64,000 bases of DNA from Podarcis tiliguerta (taxonomy: Eukaryota): assembly GCA_965153285.1 (NCBI GenBank), contig OZ229120.1; one strand, given 5' to 3'. The position numbers and the translations under genes were made by a program. The notes beneath the pieces were generated by a model. The model did not search any database, had not been told where the DNA came from, and saw only the letters and a list, made by a program, of their open reading frames with translations. Shown one piece after another: positions 11,894 through 62,200 of the stretch (its first letter is position 1; the number at the start of each line of letters is the position of its first letter).

Positions 11894-11894
<1 letters not shown>

Positions 11895-11939
<45 letters not shown>

Positions 11940-18298: not shown

Positions 18299-19130
18299 TC
18301 AAAACGACCTTGACGGATTAGAGAACTGGGCCAAAACAAACAAGATGAATTTTAACAGGGAGAAATGTAAAGTATTGCACTTGGGCAAAAAAAATGAGAG
18401 GCACAAATACAAGATGGGTGACACCTGGCTTGAGAGCAGTACATGTGAAAAGGATCTGGGAGTCTTGGTTGACCACAAACTTGACATGAGCCAACAGTGT
18501 GACGCGGCAGCTAAAAAAGCCAATGCAATTCTGGGCTGCATCAATAGGAGTATAGCATCTAGATCAAGGGAAGTTATAGTGCCACTGTATTCTGCTCTGG
18601 TCAGACCTCACCTGGAGTACTGTGTCCAGTTCTGGGCACCACAGTTCAAGAAGGACACTGACAAACTGGAACGTGTCCAGAGGAGGGCAACCAAAATGGT
18701 CAAAGGCCTGGAAACGATGCCTTATGAGGATCGGCTAAGGGAGCTGGGCATGTTTAGCCTGGAGAAGAGGAGGTTAAGGGGTGATATGATAGCCATGTTC
18801 AAATATATAAAAGGATGTCACATAGAGGAGGGAGAAAGGTTGTTTTCTGCTGCTCCAGAGAAGCGGACACGGAGCAATGGATCCAAACTACAAGAAAGAA
18901 GATTCCACCTAAACATTAGGAAGAACTTCCTGACAGTAAGAGCTGTTCGACAGTGGAATTTGCTGCCAAGGAGTGTGGTGGAGTCTCCTTCTTTGGAGGT
19001 CTTTAAGCAGAGGCTTGACAACCATATGTCAGGAGTGCTCTGATGGTGTTTCCTGCTTGGCAGGGGGTTGGACTCGATGGCCCTTGTGGTCTCTTCCAAC
19101 TCTATGATTCTATGATTCTATGATTCTATG
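18299..19130 (+). mobile_element. CR1 LINE 3' fragment (end of ORF2 at 18299-19043 plus 3' UTR), apparently young
   Basis: Motifs QNDLD.LENWA...KCKVLHLG...[19 protein letters not shown]...LEKRRLRGD run uninterrupted to the stop; (ATTCTATG)n tail. Confidence 0.95.
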
Positions 19131-24223: not shown

Positions 24224-24271
<48 letters not shown>

Positions 24272-25559: not shown

Positions 25560-25746
25560 NNNNNNNNNNNNNNNNNNNNNNNNNNNNNNNNNNNNNNNNN
25601 NNNNNNNNNNNNNNNNNNNNNNNNNNNNNNNNNNNNNNNNNNNNNNNNNNNNNNNNNNNNNNNNNNNNNNNNNNNNNNNNNNNNNNNNNNNNNNNNNNNN
25701 NNNNNNNNNNNNNNNNNNNNNNNNNNNNNNNNNNNNNNNNNNNNNN
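25560..25746. other. Assembly gap (187 N), preceded by duplicated CR1-tail sequence
   Basis: Run of N; CAACTCTA.AATTCTA is repeated at about 25499-25559. Confidence 0.99.

Positions 25747-27832: not shown

Positions 27833-27875
<43 letters not shown>
26450..27875 (+). mobile_element. L2-clade LINE, 5'-truncated, with reverse transcriptase domain, C-terminus and (TTA)n tail; frameshifted near 26875
   Basis: Motifs LDPFQSGFR.GHGTETAL, LLDLSAAFD, GVPQG, YADDTQLY, then SRLDYCNSL and LHWLP in a second frame; high CpG content suggests a young copy. Confidence 0.92.
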
Positions 27876-28319
27876 GAGTGCCATTTCCACTGAATACTCA
27901 ATTCATTGAATAGTACAGCATACACTGAGGTTGCAACTTGATGCATTTTGAAATGATGTGTTGGAATTTCGCCACATTGGAGCATCTTTCCATACCGAAT
28001 TTGTGAAGGAAAAACCAACAAGGAAAACCTTGTAGGAAGAGGGGTGATTTTTAGCCCTTTCTTGTTCCATTTGGTGCACATATAAAACTTTTATGATTAT
28101 ACAGTAGTGAGTGTCAGATTGCAATGGGAGTTTGTCAAAATTCTGTTATGAGATTGCTGTGTGATTATGGTGTGTGGCGTTATCACCAGGGCTGAATCAC
28201 AGTGTGACAAATGAAATTTAGGAGTGTAGGATCAGTGGTTCATGTTTCCTCAATGGTTGGGAAATACCAGGGATTCTCTTGAGTGACTTGAACAGGAAAT
28301 ACTATGGAAAGGCAACTCA

Positions 28320-28320
<1 letters not shown>

Positions 28321-28367
<47 letters not shown>

Positions 28368-28389
28368 GGGGGGGAGGGAGGGAGAGACG
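28321..28389. repeat. Compound (CA)n(GA)n(GGGA)n microsatellite
   Basis: Read directly. Confidence 0.95.
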
Positions 28390-31292: not shown

Positions 31293-31845
31293 TAGCCCTC
31301 CAAATGTTGTTGGACTCCAACTCACATCAGCCCCAGCTGGCTAATCGCAAGGGATGATGGGAGTTGGAGTCCAATGACATCTGGAGGACCACAGATTTCG
31401 CATCCTTTGCTACATCTTCTCTAGGGCTGCCAATTTTTTTATTGACTCTTTCCTGCACCTTCAACCCTTGCTTGCCTAGAATGCACTGTTTTAAACGGAT
31501 GAGGTTTTCCTTGTTGCTATATATCTCAATGCCAAGTAAAGCTTCACCTGCTAGTTTTTGTATGTCTGACTGTATGGTCAGTTAGAAAGCTGCTGCCATG
31601 TGCCAAGATGTGCTGGGATCTAAAGTCTTACCCCACATGTACCCACTCAACTGCTTTGATCTGTGGAATTGGCACTATTATAGTTGCCACATAATGCTCA
31701 TTCCACACTTAAAAGAAATTGATATTTTTGCATGGCAGCACTAAACTTTGGAACTCCCTATTGATATCAGGCAGGCAACTTCACTGAACTCTTTTCAGCA
31801 CCTGCTTAAAACTTTTCTATTTGGGCAGGGCTATCCAGACATGTA

Positions 31846-35496: not shown

Positions 35497-36252
35497 AATA
35501 TAGACATCTGCTTTACACTGAGTCTGATTAGTGGTCAGTTTAGCTCAGTATTGTCTATAATGTCTAGCTGTAGCTCTCTCCCAAGCTACAGAGAGGAGTC
35601 TTTTTCCAGCCCTACCTGAAGGTGCTGAGAACTGAACCTGGGTCCTTCTGCATGCAAGGAAGGCAGATGCTCCACCACTCAGCCATGACCCTGCCCCATT
35701 GTATCTGCAAGATGAAATCACTGCTCTTCCCTGAATTGAACAGCATGCTAATCCAGTACAACAATATCTGGATGCTTTTGGGGAGGGATATTAGCTCAGT
35801 GCTGGAGCAATGACCTTGTGTGCAGAAGCCCCCAGGTTCAGCAGCCCCTGGCATCTCCAGCTTAAAGGATTAAGTAGCAAGGAAGTTGAAGATGTACTTG
35901 CAGGAAGGGGATTAGAAAACCTGCCCTCCTTGTGGCATATGGTGCAGATCAGTCCCACTAGTCCACTGCTGCTGCAGCCTCCCTCCGTCAAGCAGGTGAG
36001 TGAGCTTCTGTCTCTGCCAGAGATGCTGGACAGTTGCTGTCAGTCGGTGTAGTAGACAATATTAGGCTAGATCAGCTTTCACCAAGCCAATGCCTTCAAG
36101 GTGTTTTGGATTCTGACTCCCACCAGCCCCCACCAGCACAGCCAATGATCAGGGATGGTGGGAGTTGTAGCCCAAAACATTTGGAGGACACCAGCTTGGG
36201 GGAAAGCTGATCAGGGTGGTCAATAGTCTATATGGCAGCTTTTTATGTTCCT
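35497..36252. mobile_element. Head-to-head pair of old tRNA(Ala)-like SINEs; the plus-strand copy is interrupted by a foldback MITE (36073-36209)
   Basis: Mutual similarity and similarity to 3548-3745; MITE ends CAGCTTTC...GAAAGCTG. Confidence 0.55.
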
Positions 36253-41644: not shown

Positions 41645-43825
41645 TAATTCTACAGCAGAAATTACACAGCATTTTAATCTGAAAAGTATGTACTGAGGAT
41701 CTACAACTGCTTTAATTTCTTTGACAGCTGTGGTCTACATTATTTCCATTGCTCCTGAACAGAGGAGCATGCATCCCTGCTTTTTCTTTCTCAGATTTGC
41801 ACAAAACCAGAAAACTGGACAAGCAAACCATACTAAGGGGAAATTGTAACGTGACTTCCTTGTACAGTTTTCTGGTTTTGTGGAAAACTGAGGGATCAAA
41901 ACAAAAAGAAAATACATCAGATATTGCACAGCTACCTTCCCCCACACCTTGTTGGTACTTAACCAGCATAATAGAATCAACAGATCCGAAGGTGGAGACA
42001 AGCACAAAAGGGTATAAACAGTAAAGACCGCAGTTGCTCCTCATATACAGATTCAAGCATGTATGGGTGTAGACAACTCTGGTATAATTCAAATGGGGGA
42101 AAGAGGATTAACAGCTTCTATAATGCTCACATGTGGACATGCCCCTCACTCCCAGCCAGGAGAGGAAGAGGAAGACATCTCCTCTTCTGCTTATTTTCTG
42201 GAAAGATCTTCTATTGATTTAGAATACTTTCATTTGCAATCACATGGCAGTATACAGTAAAAAGAAAGAAAAACATTTAATTACAAAACAAAAGAACAGC
42301 TAGTAGGCCAAGAAAGGCGTAACATTAATAAATACTACCAACTGGTATCTGTGGCGACTCATGGCTCTAGCTTGCACAATGAAGCAGATACTTACCAGAT
42401 ATGGCCGGGATAATTACTTAATGTGGAAACTGATGTGTCTATTTTTTGTAGTTCTTCTTTCCAGTGAAGGAGCCCAGCCCAGTCTGCCCTCAGCCATCTC
42501 CTCACCTGTCTGCCATTTGAAGAGGTGGCACTATCAACCTCCTTGTCAGGGTGAGAAGTATCCCTCACCCAGTGCAGGTAGCACTTTAGGATCCCATAGC
42601 CTAGCCCATTATATGAAGAAAACGTCAAAGTCTGACCCTATATCTCTGTGCTGAGTCAACCAGTGCTTAGTTTCTGCCAAAAGACAACTTCTAAGATGCA
42701 CGTGCTGGAAGTTATTTTTGTTTTATTTATATTGTTTTATATCTATTTAGTTATATTGTGCTTTCAAAGCACTCAGGGCTCTGCTAGGAGCTTTCCAGAT
42801 TCTATCAACAGCTTGTAAGTTACTTTAATAAAATAGGCAGAAATAAATCTACCCTATCAATGAGACAGAACCGTCGATGGTATTGTGCAAGACTCAATAA
42901 AATATACACCCTGAGCTACACATCTAAAAAAATGAATTTTCACAACTATCATGCTCATAAAACACATCTCATTGTCTTTTAAATTGAGTTTAAAATAAAG
43001 GTTCAGAACTGAGCCCTACAACGTTGCGCGTTCCCTCTGTCATGCTTTGAATGTGGTTGCGGATAGCATAAGATAGATCATTTCATGGCACCACCAGCAT
43101 ACATATTCACGGAATTTATTACTGAGCTCATGCCAGCTGAATTATGGATGCCGGCCAAAAGACGCTTGAACACAGAACTCTTGGAATGTCTCCCTTGTGG
43201 TGGTTCGGAGGCAGTGAGCTGCATTAGGAAAGAGCGTGGATACCGAGTGAGGCAGCAACTGTTACATTCCTGGATAGTTTGATTTAGTGCGGAATTTTTT
43301 ATAGACAGATTCGGTGGTAACCCTTTCATTCCCAGTGCCCCACAGGGACTCAAAACACTTTTCATGGCGCACACTTTAAAGTTCCTGCAGTGTTTGGAAA
43401 TGTGATATTGTCAATGTTCCCTGGGGCACTCAATTATGAGATCCTTCTGTGGCTGTCAAAAGCCAGTCGTTCAGAAGATTACTCTTTTCCATTCTTGAAA
43501 ATGATGTGGGGAAAGAACCAAATATAGAATCGAGACTTGGTTCTTTCTCTCCTAATTATTTTTGGGGAACATTTTGAAATGTTTGGGTTTCTGAAAAGAC
43601 TGTGCTTCATGCATGGGTGCCAAGTTGACTAAAGTATTGGGCAGGGCGCAGGTTAATCCCTGCCCCACCTAATCGATCACAAGACACTGTGCACATGCTC
43701 CATCTGAATGGCAATGCCAATCAAATGGGGTGGGGCTCCCTCAAATATTGTATTGGGGGGACAACGGGACCTCAGCCCTTAGATGTTAACTCCTGTGCCT
43801 TCATGTTTACAACTATGCATACCTT

Positions 43826-43950
43826 GGGAAAGCTCAGTCGGTAGAGCATGAGACTTTTAATCTCAGGGTCATGGGTTTGGACTTCATGTTGGGGTTAAAC
43901 TAGATGACCCTTGTGGTCCCTTCCAAATCTACAATTCTATGATTCTATGA
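43826..43950 (+). mobile_element. SINE-like element: tRNA-Lys-derived head plus CR1 3' tail
   Basis: AGCTCAGTCGGTAGAGCATGAGACTTTTAATCTCAGGGTC... followed by CTAGATGACCC...TCCCTTCCAA...(ATTCTATG)2. Confidence 0.85.
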
Positions 43951-44306
43951 TCTGTATGAAATATGGGTGTATGTTTGGATAACCAGTACCATCTCATCTT
44001 TTGAGCTAATTGGACATTTATCTTGCAGAAAAGCTTGTTTTCGTATCTGGTAAAGTGACCTGTCAAATATTTTCAAAAGACACAGTGATCAAACATTGCC
44101 AAATATTCTATTAAGCCAAAGATGGCACTTTTGGATTTAATTATGATGTCCTTTGTTAGGAGGGAAGGAGCGTGCAATGCTTGCCCCCTAGCTCTGCAGC
44201 AGTCTGGGAAAAACATAGCAGTACAGCAATGTTTCTCTTAAGGGCCGCTTGCAGTAACTGCAGACATCACCAAACAAGAACAGCATCTATCTGTCATCAG
44301 TGGCAA

Positions 44307-44685
44307 TAATAATAATAATAGTAGTAGTAGTAGTAGTAGTAATTATTATTATTATTATTTATTTATATCCCGCCCATCTGGCTGGGTTTCCCCAAAGAAT
44401 CTGGGCAGCTCCCAACAGATTAAAAACAGAATGAAATATTCATCCTTAAAAACTCCCCTTAAACAGGGCTTCCTTCAGATGTATTCTAAAAGTGGATAGT
44501 TGTTTATTTCCTTGACATCTGATGGGAGGGTGTTCCACAGGTCGGATGCCGCTACCGAGAAGGCCTGGTTCCCTGTAACCTCACTTCTCACAGTGAGGGA
44601 ACCGCCAGAAGGCTCTTGGTGCTGGACCTCAGTGTCTGGGCTGAACAATGGGGGTGGAGACGCTCCTTCAGGCATACTGGGACGA
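44307..44685 (-). mobile_element. L2-type LINE 3' end with compound (AAT)(AGT)(ATT) microsatellite tail
   Basis: Minus strand reads AFSVAA.DLWNTLPSDVKEINNY. Confidence 0.75.
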
Positions 44686-45797
44686 GGACTGCCCATGACA
44701 CCATCTTTATTTTTCTGCAGGAAATGAGGAGAACACCCCTCATTGAAACCTCAGTGTTGAAACCTTTCCCCTCCCCCAAACAATGGAAAATTGGACAGTG
44801 ACTAGTGAAACGCTAGAAATGCTCATTTCAATCTGAGCAAACCTTTGATTTTTAGAAGTCAACAATAAATATAATGACAAATGTGGAGAAGCAGAAGAAA
44901 CAGAAATGGATAGTGGTAGCTCTGAAAAATGAAATTGATTAAATTCCATGTAGTCTTAATTCAGTCTGGCTTTTCTCCTTTTTGCAGCTCTTTCTATGAA
45001 AATGGGTGTTTTATATCTGTTGGGCACTGTGGAGGACTGAAGGAAACTGGGTTGTATTCAATGCTAGTCCTACTACGAGTAGACCTACCAATGTTAATAG
45101 ATAGAACTAACTTAGGGTCATTAATTGCAAGGTCTCTACTTTGAGTAGGAATTCTTCAATAGAACTCATAATAAGTTTCTTTACTATAATATTGATGGTT
45201 TCTTCTACCTTTGTTGTTTTTTGCCTCCTCATAAACTGGCAAAATAAAAGACATGCTAGGTTCCTTACTGTTCAGCAGCTTATAGCTTTGTTTGTATCAA
45301 AATAAAAAATAAAAAGCAAAATCAATTGACTGAATATTGACTAAATAAATTATATTTTTTTAATATACCAAATATTTAGTTGCAAACAGGTTGCACATAA
45401 TACATATTAATGTTCCTAAAGTAACAAAATGACTTTTGATCTGTAAGGGAAGATGGATGGCATGTCCCCAGAGGCAGGGAGCTGTGGTCCTGTAATGAAG
45501 GCTAGCTGTATAAATGATTCCAAGAAGGAAGAATGCAGGGCAAAATTGCATTAGATTGCCCTGGTGTCCAGGGAAAGACCCACGTCCTGTTCCGTGACAT
45601 GGAGCATCTCATAGTAATATATGAAGACTCGCTTTCTCACTGTATTAGGAACTATTTGCAAATATGAATATGAAATATGAAAGTAACAATTCCCCCAAAT
45701 TTTTTAGCTGCACAGCTTGACTGCCTGAAATTAAGTGCAGCAATGGATAACTGAAATAATTTCCTTCTCATAAAATACCACCTGACTATAGGAGTAT

Positions 45798-46130
45798 CAT
45801 TGGCGTAGCGTGGGGGGTGCAGGGGGGGCCGGCCGCACCGGCCGCAACATCTGGGGGGGGCACTCGCACTCGCAGCTCTCTGCCCCTACCTGGCTCACTC
45901 ACTCTCTCTCACTGCAGTGCTGGCTGTGCGAATCCGATCCAAGCCACCGGGTCGCCGCCCACTGTGGAGGGGAAGGTGCCAGGCGTGCGGTGCGGTGTGG
46001 AGAGAGAGCGAGGGACTATCTGGGGGAGGGACAGTGCAGCGGGGGGTGCAAATTACTTGCCTTGCCCCGGGTTAGGGGGCGCAAATTACTTGCCTTGCCC
46101 CGGGTGCTGACAACCCACGCTACGCCACTG
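45798..46130. mobile_element. Second copy of the 32900-33239 MITE in the opposite orientation
   Basis: Near-identical reverse complement; imperfect TSD AGGAGTAT / GGTAGTAT. Confidence 0.92.
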
Positions 46131-47343
46131 GGTAGTATATATCTTTATAAGCTTTTCCAACATATGTGGAGTGCTTTTCAAATATTTTAATTTCAAAGGG
46201 GGCTATTAAGACCCTCTCTTCAGGTCTCCCACATTCTGCTGAAGTAACTCCATTTAAAAAGATGCAAAAATGTATTTCAAGTAAAGAACTTCAAATCCAT
46301 TGCTTCTCTGCAATGCAAGAGACTGTAGGTGAGTCACAAATACTCTGCATCAGCAAAGGGCAAACACAATCCCTATTCCTTTTATAACATATGGTAAATG
46401 TTTATTGAATACATATATTTTCATACTATGGCAGGAATCCACCCAACGCTCATCAGAGAATATGGCATGATCTTTTACAGTACATAATCAAATGAAACTG
46501 CATTATATAGCATGACAAAGGTCTGTTATTTTATCAGAACAAGTTATTTGTTGTTTACTGCAGCAACATTTTTTTCCTCAAAATGTATATTCTGTACCTT
46601 GAAAAAAAAAGTTATTGAAAACACCTCAGAAATGCTCTGCATAACATAAATGAATCCAGAACAGTCAAATGAGTAATATCCACTCAGTACGGGTATAACC
46701 CACTCCTAACTAGCTCCTGCTAGTAAATGAACTTCTCAAAAGGGATAATATTTTTTTTTTAATAGTGAGCAAGGAATTTTGATGATTCATTGAGACAAAA
46801 TTCCAAAGTGCCAAGGTTGCAAGTGGATTTGACTCCAGGTGAATTTGGAGTTTACCTTTGAAACATTTTTTGTTGTTGAATCATAACATCCTGGGAGACT
46901 TAAATGCTACTGTCTGAGAACAGAGGGGTTTTTTTGTGGATTACTTGCAATATCTTGCTTAGCATCACTCAAGTTGGCCCATACATGGCAAACAAGTTCT
47001 GAAGATGAGAGTGCTGGCAGCAAAGGGATTGAAGATTAAGGATCCACATAGACACCCTTGCTGTGAGACTGTCTAGGCCGGACGTTTCAGCCCCAACTCT
47101 TAACCAAGGTGAGGCCCACCAGAATTTTGGGCTGGGCTATTGTTTATTTGGTTGCGTACTTTTGGTGCCTTGTCTATTGCTTATGACTACTTTTGTTATG
47201 TTTGTAGTTATGTGATTTTAAAAAATATTTTGGAAGCTGTCTTAAGCATGGTTTTAACTGCCTCAATGAGGGGAAAATCCCCTAACTGACATCTTATAAC
47301 CTTGAAAACATCCATTAATCTATAACATAGTATAATGAGCCTG

Positions 47344-47690
47344 AGGAGACTCTTGAGAGTCCCATGGACTTCAAGAAGATCAAACCTATCCATTCTGAAG
47401 GAAATCAGCCTGAGTGCTCACTGGAAGGACAGATCGTGAAGCTGAGGCTCCAATACTTTGGCCACCTCATGAGAAGAGAAGACTCCCTGGAAAAGACCCT
47501 GATGTTGGGAAAGATGGAGGGCACAAGGAGAAGGGGACGACAGAAGACGAGATGGTTAGATAGTGTTCTCGAAGCTACCAGCATGAGTTTGACCAAACTG
47601 CGGGAGGCAGTGGAAGACAGGAGTGCCTGGTGTGCTCTGGTCCATGGGGTCACGAAGAGTCAGACACGACTAAATGACTAAACAACAACA
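47344..47690 (+). mobile_element. RTE-BovB LINE 3' fragment
   Basis: Near-identical to the 3' part of 9311-9762; (CAA)n tail. Confidence 0.92.
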
Positions 47691-48865
47691 TGAGATAGAA
47701 AAAAACTTAAGTGTCTTAGTTCCATACAATAATCCTTTGAACAATAAACATGCATATGTAATACAAATGCTTATGATCTGAAATCCCAGAGAAGTAATAA
47801 ACTGTTGTAATCCTGGTAAGATTAGATTAAGTGGTTTGATAGGATGGCTAGCATAGGGACATTTGCTTTCATCAGCGCTTTTTTTCTGGCAGAATGCTCC
47901 GGAATGCAGTTCTTGGACCTTTTTCTTTTCCCAAATCAGAGCCTCCCATCTTCTTCCCAAAGCCCAGGAAGCTTCTGCCCATCTGAGGGAGGGAGGCGCA
48001 ATGCTCTGGCAGAGTCCGGGAGCCCTCCCACCTCCTTCCCAAAGCCCACCCAGGCAGATTCTACCAAAGCAAATTCCCATGGAACTGTCCACAGAGCAGT
48101 GCACCAAAATGTGGCCACTCCTTGCTCGCCTGCCATGTGATGAAGACTGGCATTCGTGCGAGAGCATATTATATCAATAAGAGTATTCAGAAATGCTCTG
48201 CGGCAGCTGAAGACATACATAGGTCATTCAATATTTTTTACGAAGTAGGCTATATGATTCCTGTATCGAGTGAAAAATGCAGTGGTTGGCGCTGCAGTGT
48301 TGCAACTGCCACCATCAATATTTAGCCTTGCATATTTGATGATGCAACTGCTCTGATGGAAAAACACAAGCATATCTTTGCCTGAGCAGTTGTCATTAGT
48401 GACATTTATCTGGAAAGATGTAGACAGTGTGTTAATGGAAGTGGCTGTTACAGTACCATCTCTCTTCTCACCTCTCTTTCCAAAAAGCTTAATGGAGAGG
48501 CAAAAGTGATGAAAGTTAATAAATGCTGCTGTCGGGTCAGGGAGCCTTACCTGTCCGTTTGAGAACAGTTTCTTAACTGCATAGTGATTTGCTGTTCTAG
48601 AGATCCAATGGTTGTATTAAAGCTTTTCAAATTAAATTATGCAATACTTTGGACTGCAGGAACATAAAAAATCATGAAAATATCACGATTTACTGTTTAG
48701 TTCTGTTTCTCCAAACTTTACTACACTAAGATTCTAAAAATGAAATATACTTATTTTTCTTCCTTTCAATGAAGGTTTAGAAGGTGTGTTTTTACTGTTA
48801 TTATTATTTAGATCCACCAGGTATGGCTGGGGCCACCCAGTCAGATGGGCAGCATATAAATGATA

Positions 48866-48901
<36 letters not shown>

Positions 48902-51346
48902 GAGTGACAGCTCTAGATATTATTAAAATATGCTATTTTAAATCTTATGTAATATGCATTGAATATTTCTGAAATATGGGGGAGGGTTATGCACTGACCA
49001 CAGGTGCTGGTATCTTTCTATAATATTCAGTATTATGTGGCAATATTGACTCTTGAGTTTTTAACAAATCCAAATTTGACACAAAGCGTATGGCCCCTTT
49101 AAGTGCAGGGCTGTTATCCCAGTCTGTATTGAATTTGAAATTGTGTTACATATGAAACTGTTTTATATGTATTTATTGTTAAAGTACTTTGAATGGTTTT
49201 GGCGAAGCAATTCACAGTTGGGATTAAATAAAAAGTAAATAAGTATTTATAAGATGGCAACCTAAGAACAGGAATTTCTTAAGTTTATTGCACAGTGTCA
49301 CCTATGTCATATTGGGCCACACACATGCTACTCTTATTGCAAATACAGGAGAGAATATGGAATAAATATGTACTTCTGAACAAATATGCATGTGATGGCA
49401 CTGTATCAATGTGGCCCTAAGTATTAAAGTGGACGTAAGTATAATTTATCTGGGGATTCAGCTAGATTGGTAAAGAAAAAGTGCTTTATATACCATACGT
49501 TGTATATGTGATATAACACTGTGACACCAGATGGTGCTATGGAGTCCTGTCCTTCCCTACCGCATTTCCCCGTATGCGTTTACAACACGTTTAACTGAAT
49601 CGCTTCTTTGACATGTCTGTATGTAGCCTGGGACTGACTGTTAAAAGGAAACCTGCTTAGGATCAGGTTGTTGGTTGGAAATGGGAAAAAAAAATTAAAA
49701 TCAAGAAATAAGGGATAATATGTTATTAGTTAAGAAGAGCTGAGATAGCAACTGGTAAGGGATATTCAGATAATATATCCAAATATTTAGTTGTGAAAGT
49801 TGTGTGAGAATTGTCTGAACAGCAGGTGAAAGGGAAGAGTCCTGGTTGTTTTTGCAAAACTTGAGGTAATTTTACAGAAAGTAAAATCAGTTTTAGGCAG
49901 ATCTGTTGAATAGAAACTCTCTTTTTTGTGTGGAGAATTGTATGCCACTGTAGTGCACTATTTTTCCTAACATATATTGAAAAAGGCTGCTTACCTATTT
50001 CTTTGCCCTAGCTTAACTAAAAAGGCTTTGTCAGTTCAAATTGTGCAGAAAAGGGCCTCACCAAAGAGGTTGCAGTGATCAAAGAGCAAACTGCGTAGGC
50101 CACTATCAAACACAGTTATTTGCATTGAGCCCATTGGCTTCCTTGCTGGATGGCAGCCATAGGGGTGAAGTGAAATGTAAAGGTCCTTTGATTTCATTAA
50201 GGGCTGTTTTGAGTATGATACGCATACTGAAATGTTTTTAATATGCTCTATATCAGATATGCAGAAACTTAAATTATTGTGAAATGTGTGCAAAAGGAGG
50301 GTATTAAGGAACAGTGGGGACGCATGAGAATCTGAGGGGCAATTGTTTTTGGAATTGTGCTTACTCCAAGACCAGGTCCCCTAATGCAATAATTTCTGTC
50401 AATGGTAGAGAAACAGCTACCTTTGTTCCCCAAATAATCCTTTGAGTGGATTTCTCTTGGGAAAACATTGGGTTGATTCAGCTTCCCAAAAATTTTGTGC
50501 GAGAGAAGGGGTTTTATCATGGATTGAGATCTACGGCAAGCCTTCATAATTCCCTTCTTATCAGATCTGAGCGACCACTAATATATATTAATTATTACAG
50601 TCCTAATGAGTCCAGCCCTTATTGTGCTTGCCTATCTCTAGGTTCCACTGAATCAAATATGGGCTTTGATTGAAAATAATTATTTCAAAGGTATTCCCCC
50701 AAGTTATATTGTTTTCATAACCTATATTGCCTATACTAGTTGTTACTGGTAGATGTGCTGTGAAAGACCTAGCTCTTCTAGTTGATCAGATACGAATCAA
50801 CCCGAGTTCCTGGTTCATTTTTACACCCTTGTTTGCACATTGCGCTTTGAGATCATAGGAACCAAAACATTAATTGATTTTTCTTGTGTAAAGACTGAAA
50901 TCATCATTGTGTTGGCCATTGTTATAGGATATGTTATGCAATAAACTTTTTATATTTATAAAAATAAATGTATACATAGATAGATAGACAGACAGACAGA
51001 TAGATAGAAGGGATTTAATCATTATACTACATGGTACCCTAATTATTCTAATTATTATTTATTCTTGGATATTGCTGTGTCAAACTAGATATTTCATTCT
51101 CCTAAATATATCCTTGAAGACTGAAAACAGGTATACAACGCTAGCTTTCAGTGTCCAATCTGATGGAGACATATCTGTAGGAAATAGCATGCTACAACTG
51201 CTGCTGATGGGTTAAGTTGACTTCATGGCATGACTCAACATTATGGTGAATGGGATTAATTTTTAGAAACCTGATGTGCTGTTCTTGAGTACTGCAAAGC
51301 TCTTATATGACATCCAATTATTAACTGATTTTAAAAATCATTTTTA

Positions 51347-51707
51347 CCGTATTTTTCGCTCCATAGGGTGCACCAGACCATAGGGCGCACCTAGTTTTTA
51401 GGGGGGGAAATAAAGGGAAAAATTTATTTCTCCCCCCCCCCAGCCCCAAAGAGCAAAGAAGCCAAGACAGCTGTCTTGGCTTCCTCTTTAGCCACGCACA
51501 ACCTCTCCAGCCGGGAGAACTCCCGCCGGGCTCTGAAGACTTGCGGATAGCTGCCTGAAACCTGGAGAGCAAGAGGGGTCGGTGCACACCGACCCCTCTC
51601 GCTCTCCAGGCTTCAGCGAAAGCCTGCATTTGCTCCATAGGGCGCACACACATTTCCCCTTCATTTTTGGAGGGGAAAAAGTGCGTCCTATAGAGCGAAA
51701 AATACGG
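51347..51707. mobile_element. Tc1/mariner-type MITE (CCGTATTTTTC ends)
   Basis: TA TSD; TIRs CCGTATTTTTCGCTCCATAGG / CCTATAGAGCGAAAAATACGG. Confidence 0.88.
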
Positions 51708-53252
51708 TAATTCATCCTGTTTGCAACCTAAATTGGGAATAATAGCAGGGTGGAAGCAGGGAGAGGGTTAAGTTGCTCCTGAAAGTGGAAGTACATTAAT
51801 ATGAACTGCCTTTTGCTGTAAAGTTGGGTTTTGACTTCTGCCAAAGTTATATTGATCACAAAGCTAGAGCTAGCTTTATTATAAAAATCATAAATCTGAT
51901 TGGACAGTAGATTCTACTTCTCAAGTGGTTTTCCTGGTCTTGGGTCCTCATCTGTGTGACCTTTTTTAAAAAAAAATACTGCTCTGGCTTTTTGCAGAAA
52001 TATTTCAAGCTGCTGCTCCACAATTCAAAATCATATGCATATGCTCATAGAACAGAATCACTTCCATCACTCTCAAAGTTATATTCACAGACATATCTCA
52101 CCTCCGTTTCAGTTCTAGCCATATCCATGGGGATTCTTAGTGAGTTTAATACCCACTGGTATAATACTGCCGTAAAAATATATAAGAGCTGTCTTACTCA
52201 TGGTGTTTGAATTAATTTACAGATTGCTGCCATCATGTTGAGTCTCTGCACTCCTGACAGGAACCACTGAGTGTTCCAGACATCCATTCAGAGTTTACAT
52301 GTCTGCTCCTTATTCAGCATTTGTTCGAATTTGTTTTCAGGGATGTTATAAGACAATAAGCATTTGTTGTTATTTGCATGCCTATAAATCACTATGAGCT
52401 GAGGCGCGCTTTTGACAATGGGGTGTCCCTCTGCGCACACACCTCTGGCGTGCTATTTCCACTCACAGCCTGGGGCAAAGGTTGCAACCAGGAGCAGCTG
52501 CTTCCAGGTTAACGGAGCTCATGACCCAATGCGAGCGTAACCAGAAGTGTTCATAAATGGAGGTACCACTGTATTCTTATATTTCGCCTGATAATGAGCT
52601 AAACTAATCCAAACTGACCAAAACAGATTATGGTTTCTTCATCTTCCTGTCCTAGAGAGTCCCACCAAAGGTGGATTGCCTTACTGAAATTCCAAGGTAA
52701 AGTGTAGATTACCTAACATATCCAGACAGAAAGTTTCACCGTTTAGGAGTGATCACTATAAAAATCCTGGCTCTCAGCCACAACAATTCCCATCTCAAGC
52801 ATTGTCAGTAGGCCCAGCCTTAACTGGTGTGTGGGCTTATTAGATACATTTTAATTGCTTTTGTAAAGGATTACTGCTAACAGAATGCTATGACTAAATG
52901 CTTATTAACAGGATTACGTAGAAGTTGCTTATTATTATCTCTGATGGCAATGGGTCTCTTGTTTTTAATGCGTCTGTACAAAATATGGATTCTAACATTT
53001 TCAGTTAATTACAGTGGTGTTACTTGGAGGTCAGCAGAGCATGAAGTCAGCCCATCTCTGACCCGGTAGAGATGCAGCTCTCAGAACTAACCTAAACTGG
53101 TAAAAGGTGCTCCATGCCAGAGAATAAACCTGCATTCCTAGTGGCAGAGGTGGTCGAAGCAGCATCCCCAAATGCAACCCGAGAGAATGCAATCCTGTCC
53201 ATAACAGAATGCATCCACTCACCTAGGCAGATGAGACACTCACCAATGACAG

Positions 53253-53397
53253 GAGTGAGAGTAGCTCAGTTGGTAGAGCACGAGACTCTTAATCTCAGGG
53301 TTGTGGGTTTGAGCCCCACGTGGGGCAAAATATACCTGTGTTGCAGAGTTGGACTAGATGACCCTCGTGTCCCTTCCAACTCTACAGTTCTATGATT
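53253..53397 (+). mobile_element. SINE-like element: tRNA-Lys(CTT)-derived head plus CR1 3' tail
   Basis: TAGCTCAGTTGGTAGAGCACGAGACTCTTAATCTCAGGGTTGTGGGTTTGAGCCCCACG followed by TTGGACTAGATGACCCTC...CAACTCTACAGTTCTATGATT. Confidence 0.88.
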
Positions 53398-53928
53398 TCA
53401 GGACTCCTTCGTCAAAAGTTGATTATAAACTCCCAGACAAGAGCCTTGACTTGCCTGTGCTACTGCAGAAGAGCCACTCTTTAATTTATACTTTAGTCAC
53501 ATCAGTGCTGCGGCAGAAAAATCTAGTTGATTAAAATGAAGTTATTCAAATATTTGATTAAAGTAAAATGGCTGGTCAATGTGAAAAGAATATAAATTAG
53601 GAAGTGAAGGGTGTTTATAAGTAAAACATGAAGTTTTCTTCCGAATATTGGCATGTTATACTGCACAAGATTTAAAGTGCATTAGTCATTGTGAGATTTG
53701 ACAGTCCCGTATTGTTGACAATATTCAGTGCATTTTATGAAGTACACAGTTTCTCTGTTGACAGGAGGACTTTGTCAGCCTCGACCTCTTCACTTACCGA
53801 CATAATTTCCCTTGCAAGCTGAGGAACCTGGGTAGGTTACGACAGCATAGGCTGACATGATGAAGAGGTTATCAGTTTATCAAGTACTGCTTGTAGCTTT
53901 TAAAAAACAAGCTGTATTATCATTCTTT

Positions 53929-54032
53929 CGTGGTGCTGATAGCACCACGGTTGCAGGTTCGATCCCTGCAAGGGACAGCTGCAGGGAGATGGATGAGATA
54001 ATTTTCAGGGCCCCTTCTAATTCTATTATTCT
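53929..54032 (+). mobile_element. Degenerate SINE-like element: partial tRNA-Ile-derived head plus CR1-like tail
   Basis: CGTGGTGCTGATAGCACCACGGTTGCAGGTTCGATCCCTGCAAGGGACA resembles the 3' two-thirds of tRNA-Ile; the tail CCCCTTCTAATTCTATTATTCT is a decayed CR1 end. Confidence 0.6.
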
Positions 54033-54632
54033 TATCATGCCATATACAAAATAACAGGCCAGATTAGTTTATTATGTGTATCTTAATTTGTACTATATTT
54101 AGAAAGATAAACAAACTAGGAATGGTTGGGGTACTGTGAAGTGGTTGGGGTACTGTGTCTTATATGTAACTGAACAATTCAGACAAACGGGAGGCTTTAT
54201 TCACAAGAGCTGCTGTGTTTGCAGAGTGTACGTGATTGGGGGGTATTTGGCTAATAAGTAGAATAGAAATTTTAGAGAATTGATTTATGTGCATGTTTAT
54301 TTAAAGCATTTCAGCCAAAAAAGGCTTCCAGAGGAGTTAAAGATAATTAAAAAACAAACAAACCAGGAGGCCAGCTTGCAGGCTTGCAATCTAAAAGACA
54401 TGACATAAAGTGGAAGGCAGGGGGGTGGGAACAAACCCAGACACCAGTTCTTAACATTAGAGAGTTCTTTTAGAAACAGCTGAGATGGAAATACTTCAGG
54501 GAGAAGAGGAAGCAAAAGGAGTGGGCCGTTCAGCAGGCCCAATGAAGTGGCCATGATTCCGATCTCTCCCTCTACTGCAGTCTGGTGGAATGGCTGTTGC
54601 CTGTTGGAAGAATAAATAAATGCATGCATGTA

Positions 54633-54874
54633 CAGTGGTACCTCGGGTTACATACGCTTCAGGTTACATATGCTTCAGGTTACAAACTCCGCTAACCCAG
54701 AAATAGTGCTTCAGGTTAAGAACTTTGCTTCAGGATGAGAACAGAAATCATGCTCCGGTGGCGCGGCAGCAGCAGGAGGCTCCATTAGCTAAAGTGGTGC
54801 TTCGGGTTAAGAACAGTTTCAGGTTAAGTACAGAGCTCTGGAACGAATTAAGTACTTAACCCGAGGTACCACTG
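54633..54874. mobile_element. Tigger/pogo-like MITE, complete
   Basis: TA TSD; perfect TIRs CAGTGGTACCTCGGGTTA / TAACCCGAGGTACCACTG. Confidence 0.92.
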
Positions 54875-57068
54875 TACATAGTTTGCATATATCACCAAAA
54901 ATCATTTGTACAGAATCTCCTCATTAGTTGTTAAGTCATTCATTCATTAAAGATAACAGCTTAGTCTTGGATAGGGTTGCCATATTTCAAAAAGTGAAAA
55001 TCCGGACACAAAAGTTGTTGAGTTTGGTTTTTTTGGAATGTCCTTTGTTGCACCGTAGTATTGGAAATCACTAGTAAATAACTAGTTAGGATTGTGTGGT
55101 AAGTTGCCTTGCTGCACGCTTTTTAGGACTCCTTCTGTAACTTCTAAATTACATTTCCACAGACATCAGTAGCACAGCAGAATATTTCACAACTCTAGTA
55201 ACACATTCCACACTGAGGCTATAGGCAGTACTTTATCACCAGCCATGTGTATCGGTCTAGGGTTGCCTTTTTTCATAATATAGCACAAGAACCTAAACTG
55301 TACTACAAATTGCTTCTGAAAAAAAATACTTTTGACTGATCGCTGTCTTTATTTACTTTAGCATAATATTGATCTTATTAAAGATCTAATATTTTTCACT
55401 CTTTGGGTTGTATCTAACTAAGTTATAGTCAAAGCAGACCCACTGAAATTATTGGACCCAGGTTGCTTCCATCGTTTTGCCCAGCCTGCATGCACATAAA
55501 CAGTAAAGAGCTGCTATCTCTGCCCAGTTGCCTGTGATTATTTGGCTGTGGCTCGGTGGTAGAGCACTTGTGTTGAAACAAAATATTGATATTATGTGGG
55601 TCTATTTACAACCATTCCTTTTATTTGCATACTCCATCTAATGGGGCATATTAAGGATTCCAGTGACAACATACAAGAAGAGTTGAGGCAATAGACAACC
55701 CTGCCTGTTTCCTCAATATTACACATAAGAATTTATCCCTGTTCCATCCTCTTCATTGATATTCAAATATGGTATTCCATTCAAGATGGCGATTGAGATA
55801 GTCTGGTGAGAAGAAAGCTCTTCGTTGTACTTCAGAGAAAATCTTTCTAAGCATTGCTTGATTCTTGGGGGAGATATTTGGCAGAGGTGAGAAATACTGT
55901 GTGACTTCTACAGGGCAACACGTTAAGACTTATAACCTTGAAAATATTTACAACCATGTTATAAAGTGCTTTTAGTTACCGTGTTAAAGCAGTTAGAGGC
56001 CTTAGCATGAGGGTTTCTAATTTGCAGCCAGTATTTTCATCTGTTTAGGTACAGCTAGGGTGAACCAGATAGGTACAGATAGGGTGAACCAGCCCTTTGG
56101 AACTTCTTTATTACAGCCAGTTACTTTTAAGGAAAGGGCTGGTGCTCTATTGTTTTTATTGTAACAATCTGTATGTGAACATTTATATGTATATATTGTA
56201 TATGTATATGCATCTATTTGAAAAATTAAATAATAATGATGATGATGTTCAAATATGGCAACTCTACATAGTCAAAAGCTTTAGAAGCATCTAAACTTTA
56301 ATAGGGCAATCAAATCTGAATCTTCGTGGGCTAGTGCATTACCATCAGCATACACTTTGGGTTATCATACCTGCCTTTTTAGCACCTTATTAGCCAGCTT
56401 TTATTAGCAGTTGAGCTGGTAATAGATACATATTGGAAATTTTTAGAGGGTGCAGTGTTGACCATACAGTACCAAAAAGTCCAGCAACTAGTGCTGATAG
56501 AAAAAATAGCTACTAAACTTAAAATACCAAGCAGAATGAAATGAAAAGACACATATTCTGATGATTGGCATAGTCTTATTATATACAGTGTAAAAGATGA
56601 CCTCCACATTATTTTAAAGAATGGTTGCTGACTGCATGTGGTAACAGGAATTGCCACACAACTGGAATATGACTCGGGATATGTGTAATGTAAGAAAATA
56701 TTTAAAAACTATACAAAAAACAGTAATGAAATATCCAATCCAAAAACATTTTAAAAATCATAAGAACACCCCAAAACTTTATTTTCTGCTATTCAAGGTC
56801 AAGACTAATGTCTGTATACAGATAGATTCATTTGGCTTTAAGCAGTAGATGTTTTAATTGTGTTCAAGGGAAATAAGGTTTAGGCCATAATGTCAGTGAA
56901 AGTGTAACAGCCTGATCCTGGGCTTCATCCCTAGTAAAAAATGTTAAAGATAAAAGTGTCAGCATGGAACGCACTTCCTTTTGGAGGAAAGCCCCAGTGA
57001 AGTCCATAGCTGTTCAGGTTGCGTTCCCCCTTAACTTGTTCAAATAGCCTGGGAGGAAGAGGTTAAGG

Positions 57069-57185
57069 CAGGGGTCAGCAAACTTTTTCAGCAGGGGGCT
57101 GGTCCACTGTCCCTCAGACCTTGTGGGGGGCCAGACTATATTTTCCAAAAAGAGAGAGAAAAAGAACGAATTCCTATGCCCCACA

Positions 57186-57228
<43 letters not shown>

Positions 57229-57401
57229 TCTTTATTGTCATTGCCCCCTTCGGGGACAACGAAATTACAACAAATAACCCAGAGACGAATTTTAAATAAA
57301 AGGACACATTCTACTCATGTAAAAACACGCTGATTCCTGGACTGGATTTAGAAGGCGATTGGGCCGGATCTGGCCCCTGGGCCTTAGTTTGCCTACCCAT
57401 G
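57069..57401. mobile_element. hAT-type MITE (inverted relative to 7450-7699) with a nested short LINE-tail insertion
   Basis: 8-bp TSD GGTTAAGG; the body is the reverse complement of 7450-7699 plus about 80 extra bp. Confidence 0.88.
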
Positions 57402-57495
57402 GGTTAAGGCTTCAATCCTTTAACCCTTTACGAGGGAGTAGTTTAACTGACTTAAATTGGACTTTATTCTGAGTATATAAAATGCGTAGATTGAT

Positions 57496-57893
57496 AGGGT
57501 CTTGAAACCAAGCGTTATGAGGAATGTTTGAGGGAGTTGAGTATGTTTAGCCTGGAGGAGACTGACAGGAGCTATGATAGCCATCTTCAAATATCTGAAG
57601 GGCTGTCACATGGAAGATGGAGCAAACTTGTTTTCTCTTGCTCTGGAGGGTAGGAAATGAACCAATGGCTTCAAGGAAGGAGATTCAGATTAAATTGTTG
57701 AGCTTTTTTTTTTTCCAGTATGGCAAGCCTAAACAATGTGACAGTGGAACAGAGTTGGTGGACTCTCCTTCCTTGGAGGTTTATTAAGCAGAGGTTGGTC
57801 GGCCATCTGTCATAGATGCTTTAGCTGAGATTCCTGCATTGCAAGGGGTTGGACTAGATGACTCTGGGGGTCCCTTCCACCTCTACGATTCTA
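57496..57893 (+). mobile_element. Degraded CR1 3' fragment (older subfamily)
   Basis: Diverged homolog of roughly 18700-19110 with indels; ends with the CR1 3' motif GGGGTTGGACTAGATGA...CTACGATTCT. Confidence 0.85.
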
Positions 57894-58074
57894 AGTGTGC
57901 ACCAAAATTGCTGTTAGGAAAACGGTGCAATGACGTTTTGGTTTTTTTTTTTAGGCCTGTGGGGAGACTCAAGGAGGGAAACTGGTAGGGAATTTCTCAA
58001 ATGTAGGTAACAGGCATTGCTTCCTTTGGGCAGGAGAGGACGTCGCCTGCATCCTGGCCTGCTTAGATAACATG

Positions 58075-58537
58075 TTGTTGTTGTTTAGTCGTTTAGTCAT
58101 GTCCGACTCTTCGTGCCCATGGACCAGAGCACGCCAGGCACTCCTGTCTTCCACTGCCTCCCACAGTCTGGTCAAACTCATGCTGGTAGCTTCGAGAACA
58201 CTGTCCAACCATCTCATCCTCTGTCGTCCCCTTCTCCTTGTGCCCTTCATCTTTCCCAACATCAGGGTCTTTTCCAGGGAGTCTTCTCTTCTCACGAGGT
58301 GGCCAAGGTATTGGAGCCTCTGCTTCAGGATCTGTCCTTCCAATGAGCACTCAGGGCTGATTTCCTGAAGAATGGAGAGGTTTGATCTTCTTGCAGTCCA
58401 TGGGACTCTCAAGAGTCTCCTCCAGCACCATAATTCAAAAGCATCAATTCTTCGGTGATCAGCCTTCTTTATGGTCCAGCTCTAACTTCCATACATCACT
58501 ACGGGGAAAACCAGAGCTTTAACTATACGGATAACTA
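58075..58537 (-). mobile_element. RTE-BovB LINE 3' fragment immediately upstream of the TNPO1 CpG island
   Basis: Reverse-complement BovB C-terminus; 11-bp TSD TAGATAACATG (58064-58074 and 58538-58548). Confidence 0.93.
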
Positions 58538-58849
58538 TAGATAACATGAGACCCTCCCCCCCCCAATGCTCTCTGCCGCCCCCTAGAGCCTGGTCGGAGG
58601 GGGTGAGTCTAGATTAGCAGGCCTCCCAGCGACAAGCGCGGGTTGAAGGGGCGGCCTCTTCTGCCTCCCGCGGCCTCCTCTCCTCTCCCTCAGCGCTCGG
58701 CTGGGCGGTCCGAGGGGAAGCTCTCCTCTCTCTCGGCGAGGGCGGGGGGAAGAAGCCAGCAGCCCGGCGCGGGAGCGGCGGCTCTAGGACCCAGGGGGAT
58801 GCGGCGCGGCCGGGTTCTCCGAGCCAGATTGCCAATTCTCCTCCGTGAC

Positions 58850-58920
58850 TCAGTCGGCTCTGCGCAGCGCACAGTAGGCGGCGGCAGCGGCAGCCGGGGC
58901 TGAGCGCAAGCGAGCAGCAG
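58850..58920 (+). other. TNPO1: Probable non-coding first exon (5' UTR) of TNPO1, start approximate; followed by a 177-nt GC-rich intron at 58921-59097
   Basis: Donor CAG|GTCCGT at 58920/58921, and acceptor CTGTTGTCTTTGCAG| ending at 59097, 9 nt upstream of the ATG. Lies inside the CpG island. Confidence 0.55.
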
Positions 58921-59106
58921 GTCCGTGGGGCTCGGGGGGAGGCGGCCGTGTGGGGAGGGGGGGAGGGGGAGGGAACTAGGCCGGGCCCACCCGCCCGGAG
59001 CGCCGCCGCTTCCTCCGCCGCGCTGCCCTCCCCGCTCGGGCCTAGCGTCGCCTCCGCCGCCGCCGCTAACGGCGGCCGCCGCCTGTTGTCTTTGCAGAGC
59101 GCCAAG

Positions 59107-59211
59107 ATGGAGTACGAGTGGAAACCCGACGAGCAGGGGCTCCAGCAGATCCTGCAGCTGCTCAAGGAGTCGCAGTCCCCGGACACCACCACGCAGAGAG
59201 CCGTGCAACAA
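59107..59211 (+). CDS. TNPO1: Transportin-1 (karyopherin beta-2), first coding exon, residues [35 protein letters not shown]; the exon probably starts at 59098 after the acceptor TGTCTTTGCAG
   Basis: The translation matches the vertebrate TNPO1 N-terminus ([10 protein letters not shown]..., whereas TNPO2 begins MDWQPDEQ...). Strong Kozak context GCCAAGATGG. Phase-0 donor GTATCCTC at 59212. Confidence 0.97.
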
Positions 59212-62200
59212 GTATCCTCCTCCCGAAGGGGTGGCGGCGCCGGGAGGGAAGGAGGGAGCGCCAGGCCGGGCGCCAGCGGCGGGAGCCCGGCCGGGCCCAA
59301 GGTCTGGGCCCCCCGCCGCCGGAAGGGCAGAGGAGCCGCGCAGGAGGGAGAGATTCCGCCGGGCGGAGGAGGAGGAGGCCGCTTCCCTTCGGGGTCGCCG
59401 GCTGGCGGAGGCCGGGGGCGTTGTAGGCCCGGCCTCCGCCCGGCCGTGGCGCGGGCTTTGAACCGCCAGGAACGGAGGCGGCGACCCTGCTCTGGCCCCG
59501 CGAGGCTTCGCGGCCTCGCACCTGTTGCCAGCCTGGCGCCGAGCCCCGTTTGGCTTTTTAAAGGCTTGGCAGCTCCGGTGTCGGGATCTCCCCCCCCCCT
59601 CATCTCCGGGCCTGGGCAGGAGGACCTTTTCGGCCATGAATTCTTCCCCCAGCTCAGCCCTCCGCCGGTGGTTCCTCTGGATAACCTGGTTGGCTTTGGA
59701 CGAGACACGTGTGGAAGCGGTCCTTTGTACCCCCGGGGCACGGAGTCGTGTCGGACCACCCCGGCGCACGTGTGATTTGTTGGCATTTGGCTTTGTTGGC
59801 ATTTCGTTTAACAGGTAGAAAGGACGGCAAGGCGCTATTGCAGACGAAGAGGGTAAGGGTCACCTTCAGAAGTGGGGAAATAGGCTGCAAACCGTTAGTT
59901 CCCCGTTTCCTTTTGTTGCATTGTGAAGACCCATTGTCTGTTGTGGACTCGGTAGAGAGCTGATGGAGGGGCTTGCTTGTTGAATGTCGGTGTATAGGAG
60001 ACACTCATACTTCTGCTAAAGGCTGGATGAAATCAAAGGTTTCTCGGTTGAAACCTCCTAAAGTTCTTACATGTGCATTGGTATGGTTAAGACAAAGCTT
60101 GCGGATGTATGTTTATAGCATTAGGGTCCAAAGTTACAGTGTTTGTTTTCCCTTGGACTAGAGATCTGGGTATGATTCAGAAGGCTGAACCAAAGTAAAA
60201 AGCATGCAGCTAATCAAACATAAAATGTATGACAAGGCACAGTGCTGCTAAAATGAAATGATTGAACAACTGGTGGTTGATAGGTATGGTTTGTTCAGAT
60301 TTTCAGTTTACAAATGTGTGTTTTATCCCCATTAAATTCAGATTTCCAGAGTACTTTACAATGAAATATCACTGAGCATGGTGTAGTAAATGGACGGGAG
60401 AAATGTAAAAAAAAATCTCATTTTTTACAAATAATGGTCATGATGGGTGACTTTTACCCACAACTCTCCAATTTTATGAGTCTATGCTGGGTCACACTAG
60501 ATTGCCTTATTTCGTTTTCCCATCTGCACTCCCTCGGGGTAGGCTATTATCAGGGATAACGAACTATTTTGGAACCTAATTGCAGAAAAGTGTCACAACA
60601 GTCCATGGGCGTAGCTAAGGTGGTAGATTTCCCTATGAGTAGAAAATCATAGAATTGTAGAGTAGGAAGGGACTTGAGGATCATCTAGTCCACCCCTTGC
60701 AATGCAGGAATCCTGCCCATGACCATCCCTGGGTGGGCTCAAACCACCAGCCTTCTGGTTAACTGCCAGATGCACTGACCCATTGTGCCACTAGCCTGCT
60801 TTTTGGCTGACCAAATGGGACGAACTTACTACTTTTTTGACATGAATGTCATGACCTGCATCTTGCAAAAGGATCAGTGAGAAATTTGATCCTTACTTGA
60901 CAACTGTCTAGGCTTCTCTGCTGAAGTTCTTACACTTTGAGAACCATTGACAAAGCAGTGGGAACATAAGGAATTTTCTACTTAACTGGAGTCCTTGTAG
61001 CACCTTAACCATTATTTGTAAGGAACCTTAATTACAAATTCCAAAAATAATATGCTTTTATATAGATAGTAGGAAGATACAAGCAGATATTGTTTTCAAA
61101 GCATTGCTCAATGGCTGGAATATTTGATATGTCCCTCCTACCTCTTTGACAGTTAAGTGGGTGTAGGAAGGGCTTAGCTAACAGCCCATATTCAGAAGTA
61201 ATGTACACTCTTATTATTATTCATTAAATTTGCATACTGCCCTATACCCGCAGGTCTCAGGGCAGTTCACAGTTTCTCCTATTGTTTTGTGCCCAATCTG
61301 ATAATCTGATTGCTGGGTTGGTTCGTTTCTGGTTAGAAGTATGATATCACAGCTGCTGATAGATGGTGAAGCTGCACCTTTTTAAAACATACATTCTTGA
61401 AATAGGTATGTGTTTGACCACTTTCTACCATCTTGAGTTTGATACATCAACATGCAGTATGCTCGGTTGATGTTTTGTAATAGGGAAAAGTAATTGGGTA
61501 CATTGCATTGCCTAGAATGCCAGACTAATTTTGCTAAAATAGATTCATTGGCTTTCTTCAACATCTCTGAAAGTGACAAGAACACTGGAAAATAACTTGG
61601 GAGTAATCAAACTCAATAGAAGAGAACAGAAAATACTCCTGTAGCGACACCACACTGTTTTCTATGGCTTGCACATCTTTCTGACATTGTTAGTAAGATG
61701 AACTATAACAACCATATGTCTACATGTGTACATACGAATATTTATTTAAAATACTTACAATGCTATTGTATACATGCCTTCAAAGGAGTTAAATTTAATT
61801 CAATGGGGTCTGCTCCCATGGATGGGCTTACAAGATTGTATCTTTACTGTCAGCAACAGCATTTTACTAGAATACTTTATCAAGGTTTTATTTATTTCTA
61901 AAATGTCTGAATTCTTCACATTGCTTCAGATTTAGATTGCAATCCTAGACATGGGTACAAATCTTTCAAAGCTGGCGTGACTCTGAGAGTGTGAGTAGCT
62001 TTCATTGCAGCCTAAGGCTGCAATCCTATCACTCTCAAGAAGGTTCCATTGGACCCCGTGGGACTTGTTTTTGAATAGGTGTGCATGGGATTAAACTATA
62101 GGATGTATAAGCATGCATAGTGTAAACAGGTATGCTCACTTAATCTTGAAATGAGTCTCTATGCATTAGTTGATTCTCGCAGTAGTCAGTCTGCGAGTAA

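Follow-up and report, generated by a model that had tools for sequence, protein, structure and literature searches.

Three old bodyless tRNA-CR1 SINE families in Podarcis tiliguerta, one of them probably born by a reverse-transcriptase jump onto a processed tRNA-Asn transcript

The 64,000-nt stretch of Podarcis tiliguerta DNA analyzed in this work (contig OZ229120.1 of assembly GCA_965153285.1; hereafter the window) contains four short interspersed elements (SINEs), in which a tRNA-derived head is joined to the 3' tail of a CR1 long interspersed element (LINE). The four elements are copies of dispersed tRNA-CR1 SINE families without a body, which is a known kind of element. The three families are old; in each, a Lys, Asn or Ile head stands on the terminal 66 nt of an old CR1 lineage. 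What can be read directly in the genome are these families and their tails, together with the gene pair from which the Asn family came and the position of its crossover. We hypothesize that the Asn family was born when the CR1 reverse transcriptase (RT) jumped onto an RNase P-cut RNA consisting of tRNA-Asn and its trailer, and we regard this as its probable origin. The elements of the window are as follows:

43823..43950, plus strand: Lys(CTT)-head CR1 SINE copy; a 24-nt internal deletion takes out the head/tail junction, and the anticodon now reads TTT
53253..53397, plus strand: Lys(CTT)-head CR1 SINE copy; belongs to a minor subfamily in which the 5' end differs and the linker has T
53929..54032, plus strand: Ile-head (anticodon GAT) CR1 SINE copy; 5'-truncated, with a 15-nt internal deletion
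60645..60795, minus strand: Asn(GTT)-head CR1 SINE copy; composed of a variant tRNA-Asn head, a linker of 11 nt that derives from the trailer, an overlap of 8 nt and the CR1 tail
57498..57896, plus strand: old-lineage CR1 copy, 5'-truncated; the partner, whose last ~66 nt correspond to the SINE tails
18705..19130 (at least), plus strand: 3' end of a young CR1, with a mean divergence of 0.8% in 22 copies; not the tail donor

Source gene pair and junction of the Asn family

The genome searched was a 1.46-Gb assembly with about 20 large contigs. The head of the Asn SINE differs at several fixed sites from the four canonical tRNA-Asn genes that were found. A motif search gave nine variant tRNA-Asn(GTT) genes on a single contig (C2), where the changes of the SINE are present at positions 29, 30, 42 and 43 in all nine genes and at position 17 in seven. 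Counted per gene, all five derived bases of the SINE head occur in seven variant genes and four of them in the other two. The variant genes retain the ancestral T21 and C24, the CpGs and the native 5' end, and thus the direction was from gene to SINE. As the changed stem bases of the head are those of the variant genes, two other readings were discarded, namely a mosaic involving Trp or Arg and structural selection acting on the SINE. The 5' ends of the Asn copies (L002-L030) are mixed; some resemble the upstream flank of the source genes joined to base 8, and others have the native start.

A tRNA-Ser(GCT) sequence lies 19-21 nt downstream of all nine variant genes, intact in three cases and decayed in six, and a tenth Asn-Ser unit, again with an intact Ser, was also found. 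The array is located outside the window:

Contig C2, 9.487-9.504 Mb and 9.892 Mb: Asn(GTT)-Ser(GCT) array of at least ten units (L334-L342, L348); Ser intact in four, decayed in six

Each of the four intact units consists of Asn, a 19-nt spacer and Ser(GCT). The first run of four or more T lies 4-5 nt past Ser, and none lies between the genes, so RNA polymerase III (Pol III) is predicted to transcribe both tRNAs once it has started at Asn. The Asn-Ser array would be a vertebrate case of a Pol III unit with two tRNAs.

By comparing the SINE with both of its parents, the majority bases were found to follow the Asn-Ser unit at 18 of the 19 trailer offsets 1-19, the exception being a CpG site, and to follow CR1 at all 20 offsets from 12 to 31. 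Therefore, the two parents overlap by 8 nt ending at Ser +1. The overlap 8-mer is GATTCCTG, and the last 8 nt of the 19-nt spacer are the start of the CR1 tail. RNase P cleaves at +1 of a tRNA. Its predicted cut site in the unit, Ser +1, is exactly the place of the switch; the chance of such a coincidence is about 1 in 12. The Asn linker was present in none of the 28 old CR1 copies. An explanation of the junction by microhomology between the 3' end of a canonical tRNA-Asn and a CR1 variant was dropped, since the source spacer explains the whole linker. Because the trailer of its own source gene was carried up to the CR1 microhomology, the Asn family represents a separate fusion. The original prediction had mentioned RT template switching as a possible route, and the Asn junction, with its 8-nt microhomology and a spacer ending at Ser +1, fits this route.

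In the proposed mechanism, Pol III would transcribe the tRNA heads of the SINEs, and CR1 open reading frame 2 would recognize the two tail hairpins together with the terminal microsatellite, so that the SINE RNA would be retrotransposed in trans. At the birth of the Asn family, a single precursor RNA would have covered the Asn-Ser pair, with a cut at Ser +1. The RNase P cut would leave an RNA of Asn plus trailer, whose free 3' end bears the 8-mer. Once the tail had been copied, the CR1 RT could have annealed to this RNA end via the 8-mer and continued onto tRNA-Asn. If true, the birth of a SINE would be seen together with its parent gene, and SINE "linkers" would be fossil pre-tRNA trailers. 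Because the donor pair survives and the crossover coincides with a predicted processing site, the template-switch model gives direct predictions on RNA ends.

Several points weigh against this origin. The four intact units have a private A48, which is absent from the Asn SINE, and hence the donor would be an ancestor of today's intact units. Both the dicistronic Asn-Ser transcript and the RNase P-cut intermediate are features predicted from sequence. Target-site repeats of at least 6 nt flank 10 of 54 full-length Lys copies, 4 of 33 Asn copies and 11 of 67 Ile copies, so target-site duplications are not above the shuffled range in these full-length copies (mean 10-11%, maximum 21-31% for shuffled pairing). 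Pattern searches of the genome gave no donor gene for Lys or Ile whose trailer matches, although the absence of such genes is not established because the patterns were narrow. Finally, the insertion of CR1 into spacer DNA yields the same junction, and the coincidence with Ser +1 (about 1 in 12) is the sole counter-argument that the junction itself offers.

In such a DNA-level birth, a 5'-truncated old CR1 would have been inserted in the spacer behind tRNA-Asn, joined by the 8-nt microhomology, and the Pol III promoter of the gene would have driven the chimera. The same letters would result, trailer offsets 1-19 followed by CR1, and a working upstream flank would also be supplied. The similarity of CR1 to the Asn-Ser unit runs weakly further upstream, and 5' microhomologies are frequent at LINE insertions. 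However, insertion does not predict that the homology ends exactly at Ser +1, and a CR1 tail was seen in none of the ten Asn-Ser units. We consider a DNA-level birth, although it is the chief competing explanation, unlikely.

Three families and their partner LINE

All four elements were located where the original prediction had placed them. It had treated them as representatives of families, and own-genome searches agree with this. For each query, 39 of the 40 scored matches were non-self (40 scored of 2889, 2668 and 1413 candidates), and the position of the head/tail junction is fixed within each family across genome-wide copies, so a chance juxtaposition of a tRNA pseudogene and a CR1 stub is not borne out. 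The heads were typed against 50 tRNA sequences of the same genome, a set in which Glu, Phe, Tyr and some others are missing. The consensus heads match Lys-CTT at 65 of 68 positions, variant Asn-GTT at 64 of 68 and Ile-AAT at 64 of 71, and the next tRNA type is far lower in each case. Thus, the heads belong to three distinct tRNA types, as predicted, and do not collapse to one. One real tRNA gene row was removed from each of the final Lys and Ile consensus sets.

The family consensuses are 143 (Lys), 152 (Asn) and 147 nt (Ile) long. The A and B boxes are conserved in the heads, which extend to the discriminator base; CCA is absent, and no run of four T occurs in any of the three consensuses. 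The predicted lack of a middle body stands, since only linkers of ~3 (Lys), 11 (Asn) and 7 nt (Ile) separate head and tail. The original description requires correction for these linkers and for the internal deletions in the copies starting at 43826 (24 nt) and 53929 (15 nt), the latter copy being 5'-truncated as well. In the Ile copies (L062-L089), 9-15 nt are often lost between repeated TGCA motifs at the junction, and the window copy is likewise affected. The copy at 43823..43950 diverges by 13% from the Lys consensus. The linker T of the minor Lys subfamily was found in all five scored copies with the variant 5' end, in a sample biased to the query (L034, L042, L043, L053, L055). None of the four window elements was called as a tRNA gene by ARAGORN, and the Rfam tRNA model matched only the two Lys heads in the window (42.2 and 31.3 bits).

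Copy numbers were estimated from a census of 120 evenly spaced 10-kb stretches (1.2 Mb). It gave 15 Lys, 13 Ile and 4 Asn heads, and none in a reversed control. This corresponds to 18,279 Lys (10,230-30,148), 4,874 Asn (1,328-12,480) and 15,841 Ile copies (8,435-27,090), or ~39,000 copies together. Three low-scoring "Asn" matches were dropped as cross-matches to another SINE, presumably Sauria. One Ala and one Asp label among the census heads proved to be a truncated Lys copy and a weak match due to chance, respectively. The original prediction had taken three heads within 17 kb as a sign of abundant families; the abundance is real, whereas the local clustering is not significant, four such SINEs in 64 kb being an ordinary density (P=0.09). 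No fourth head was found among 106 tails in 1.2 Mb, where rare families or other tails could escape, nor among 100 listed of 199 B-box-plus-tail pattern matches judged by eye. Many Rfam tRNA matches (L104-L120) belong to an Ala-like SINE with a long body, which we take to be Squam2-like; 269,450 Rfam tRNA candidates were seen genome-wide at first look. The three families will inflate tRNA gene counts, spurious Ile-GAT genes included.

Each tail consists of 66 nt of CR1, with two predicted hairpins as in old CR1, followed by an 8-nt microsatellite. In these 66 nt, the Lys, Asn and Ile tails have 1, 1 and 4 mismatches to old CR1 and 9, 11 and 10 to young CR1. The mean divergence is 12.6% in Lys (n=10), 14.2% in Asn (n=3) and 11.5% in Ile (n=11), in comparison with 12.6% in old (n=28) and 0.8% (n=22) in young CR1. 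The lower number of tail mismatches and the similar divergence indicate that the old CR1 lineage is the SINE partner, as had been proposed. Since the SINEs are ~12-14% diverged, like old CR1, the three families are probably extinct. The prediction had also relied on a 20-mer of the Asn tail identical to CR1 at 57829-57848; the match is real, but at one of its positions the window copy has the rarer base, an A found in 6 of 33 Asn copies. Two more headless tail stubs of old CR1 occur in the window at 25463-25520 and 2983-3054. The ends of inverted-repeat elements, presumably hAT-type miniature inverted-repeat transposable elements (MITEs), repeatedly adjoin the CTAG of the CR1/SINE tail, suggesting a preferred target (L202:679, L228:8421, L254:4609, L311, L323, L332).

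The left junction of the SINE at 53253..53397 is spanned by contigs of two other organisms, and the junctions of the SINE at 53929..54032 by contigs of three, with flanks 2-7% different in both cases. Furthermore, words of one Ile copy are present in sequencing runs of nine organisms. The three families can serve as shared insertion markers across related species.

Lys and Ile families and the number of fusions

The Lys linker is short and A-rich, and the Lys family likely arose by a fusion of its own, at the base of the same hairpin. All nine canonical tRNA-Ile genes have the anticodon AAT and T7, and the Ile SINE head differs from all of them at four non-CpG sites. Diagnostic bases were counted in 98 non-gene matches (from 100 listed of 346), of which 88 have G34 and 88 have A7; G34 was also found in 10 of 10 unbiased copies with a base at this position. 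With C2 and A7, the first seven bases are those of tRNA-Lys(TTT). A72 is the Asn base (73 of 90 copies), and the next four bases are the start of the Asn trailer. Copies with the native C72 are rare (12), and 10 of these 12 already have G34, so the diagnostic changes were already in the founder; an ancestral Ile subfamily with the native A34, G52 and C72 was sought and not found. It is likely from these bases that the Ile family is an RNA-level mosaic of a Lys-TTT-type 5' end of seven bases, an Ile core and Asn-type last bases, and its founder would have been assembled by further RT jumps among tRNA RNAs. Point mutations could also have produced these bases. One of the nine tRNA-Ile(AAT) genes (L269, contig C13 near 43.39 Mb) has a trailer whose first 9 nt equal an old-CR1 variant just before the junction, which makes it a possible Ile donor.

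A reverse transcriptase reads inosine as G. A34 of tRNA-Ile(AAT) is edited to inosine (PMC8044555). G34 of the Ile SINE is possibly inosine-34 copied as G. On the other hand, G34 reached only 14 of 20 in another set (21 copies), and it could be a plain point mutation. A tentative combination of these ideas, with slightly less than an even chance, is that the CR1 RT captured the RNase P product of the Asn-Ser precursor via its last 8 nt and that the lineage went on to assemble, from tRNA RNAs, an Ile SINE in three parts, in which inosine-34 became fixed as G.

The original prediction of heads swapped repeatedly onto one CR1 tail corresponds to serial head swapping, in which one ancestral tRNA-CR1 SINE changed its head twice (the PittSINE model). 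Three abundant families with a shared old-CR1 partner do exist, and their entry points into CR1 all lie within a few bases of one common hairpin. In addition, the Ile family has the Asn-type A72 and the four bases that open the Asn trailer. However, no derived tail base is common to Lys, Asn and Ile and absent from the LINE, which is the test used for TguSINE1 and PittSINE; instead, a private T occurs in 42 of 59 Lys copies versus 2 of 26 old CR1 copies, and a different private T in 52 of 60 Ile copies. The Asn linker derives from its own gene, the four bases shared by Asn and Ile are likewise found in CR1 and in the L269 trailer, and the hairpin requirement alone can impose a common entry point. 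Serial head swapping is therefore very unlikely. A stall hot spot of the RT (13 of 47 headless tails start at -8..+5 of the junction) was not used as evidence, because many headless tails may be truncated SINEs. Heads were likely fused to one CR1 lineage at least twice and probably three times, and the Ile family may be a later mosaic; there is about an even chance that it arose when a new head was put on the Asn SINE. CR1 stubs are common in this genome, but an origin as internal-deletion derivatives of tRNA-headed CR1 LINEs or as many independent retrocopies is largely refuted and hardly credible, since the tail lies within 90 nt of the head in 186 of 195 non-gene heads (the other 9 being without CR1 body in the 50-75 nt viewed) and since junctions and diagnostic bases fixed per family require master copies.

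Two other observations were made in the window. Matches to Rfam mir-5408 below the gathering score at 31303-31381 and 36099-36182, on both strands, are probably inverted-repeat MITEs and not microRNA genes. At 58001-60000, the GC content rises to 63%, versus ~42% elsewhere, which may indicate a CpG island or an exon.

Comparison with known SINEs

The Lys family may be the Podarcis SINE of 2004, which reportedly bears the name P.s.1/SINE and a Lys head. This CR1-partnered tRNA SINE of Podarcis sicula (Fantaccione et al., 2004, cited in PMC5063351) is likewise tRNA-derived, from a lizard and paired with a CR1-like LINE; by its title it is one family, versus three here. tRNA-CR1 SINEs that are bodyless or short have been described in passerines, turtles, tuatara and Podarcis, and Ile heads with G34 in a trogon. 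The tortoise Pol III/SINE, with a tRNA-Lys head and a PsCR1 tail (PMC3747384), and the tuatara tuaCR1-SINE1a/b, with a tRNA head and a CR1 tail (PMC7116210, 10.1101/867069), belong to other lineages and are likened here by description; one tuatara supplement searched for the present families gave no match. The squamate Squam1/Sauria, Squam2 and Squam3 are also tRNA-related (PMC10702118, PMC7983390, PMC13295347). However, they are ~190-350 nt long with bodies and have Bov-B (Sauria) or L2 (Squam3) tails, whereas the families described here are 143-152 nt long, bodyless and CR1-tailed. With PMC4494074, PMC11303007 and PMC3531059 also included, no Asn- or Ile-headed CR1 SINE of lizards and no trailer-derived SINE linker was found in the openly accessible literature, most supplements lying outside this scope.

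The tRNA-Ile head of ApalSINE1 from the bar-tailed trogon also reads GAT, although this SINE is bird-specific, and other G34 types (Ala GGC, Val GAC, Thr GGT, Leu GAG) are over-represented as well (PMC8044555). The suggested tie between G34 in a SINE and inosine read-through is ours and not that of the accessible text of PMC8044555.

A close parallel is given by TguSINE1 and PittSINE of passerines, for which template switching was proposed (PMC5729268). In both, a tRNA head stands directly on a CR1 tail with an RT-binding hairpin and an 8-nt microsatellite, and different heads (Ile, Asp) were joined to one CR1 lineage. As in the TguSINE1 kind, the activity of the three families overlaps that of the partner LINE (SINEs 11.5-14.2% versus old CR1 12.6% diverged). 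On the other hand, four derived tail bases shared by TguSINE1 and PittSINE mark a true head swap, whereas none is common to the three families here, and the passerine SINEs have ~2,000-2,500 copies per bird genome, versus ~5,000-18,000 per family here. How a tRNA head and a LINE tail came together is usually deduced from consensuses that have decayed, and the accessible text on TguSINE1 and PittSINE identifies neither a source gene nor a trailer microhomology. In contrast, the donor gene pair of the Asn family survives, and it is this unit, together with a crossover narrowed to 8 nt where processing is predicted, that forms the valuable part of this work.

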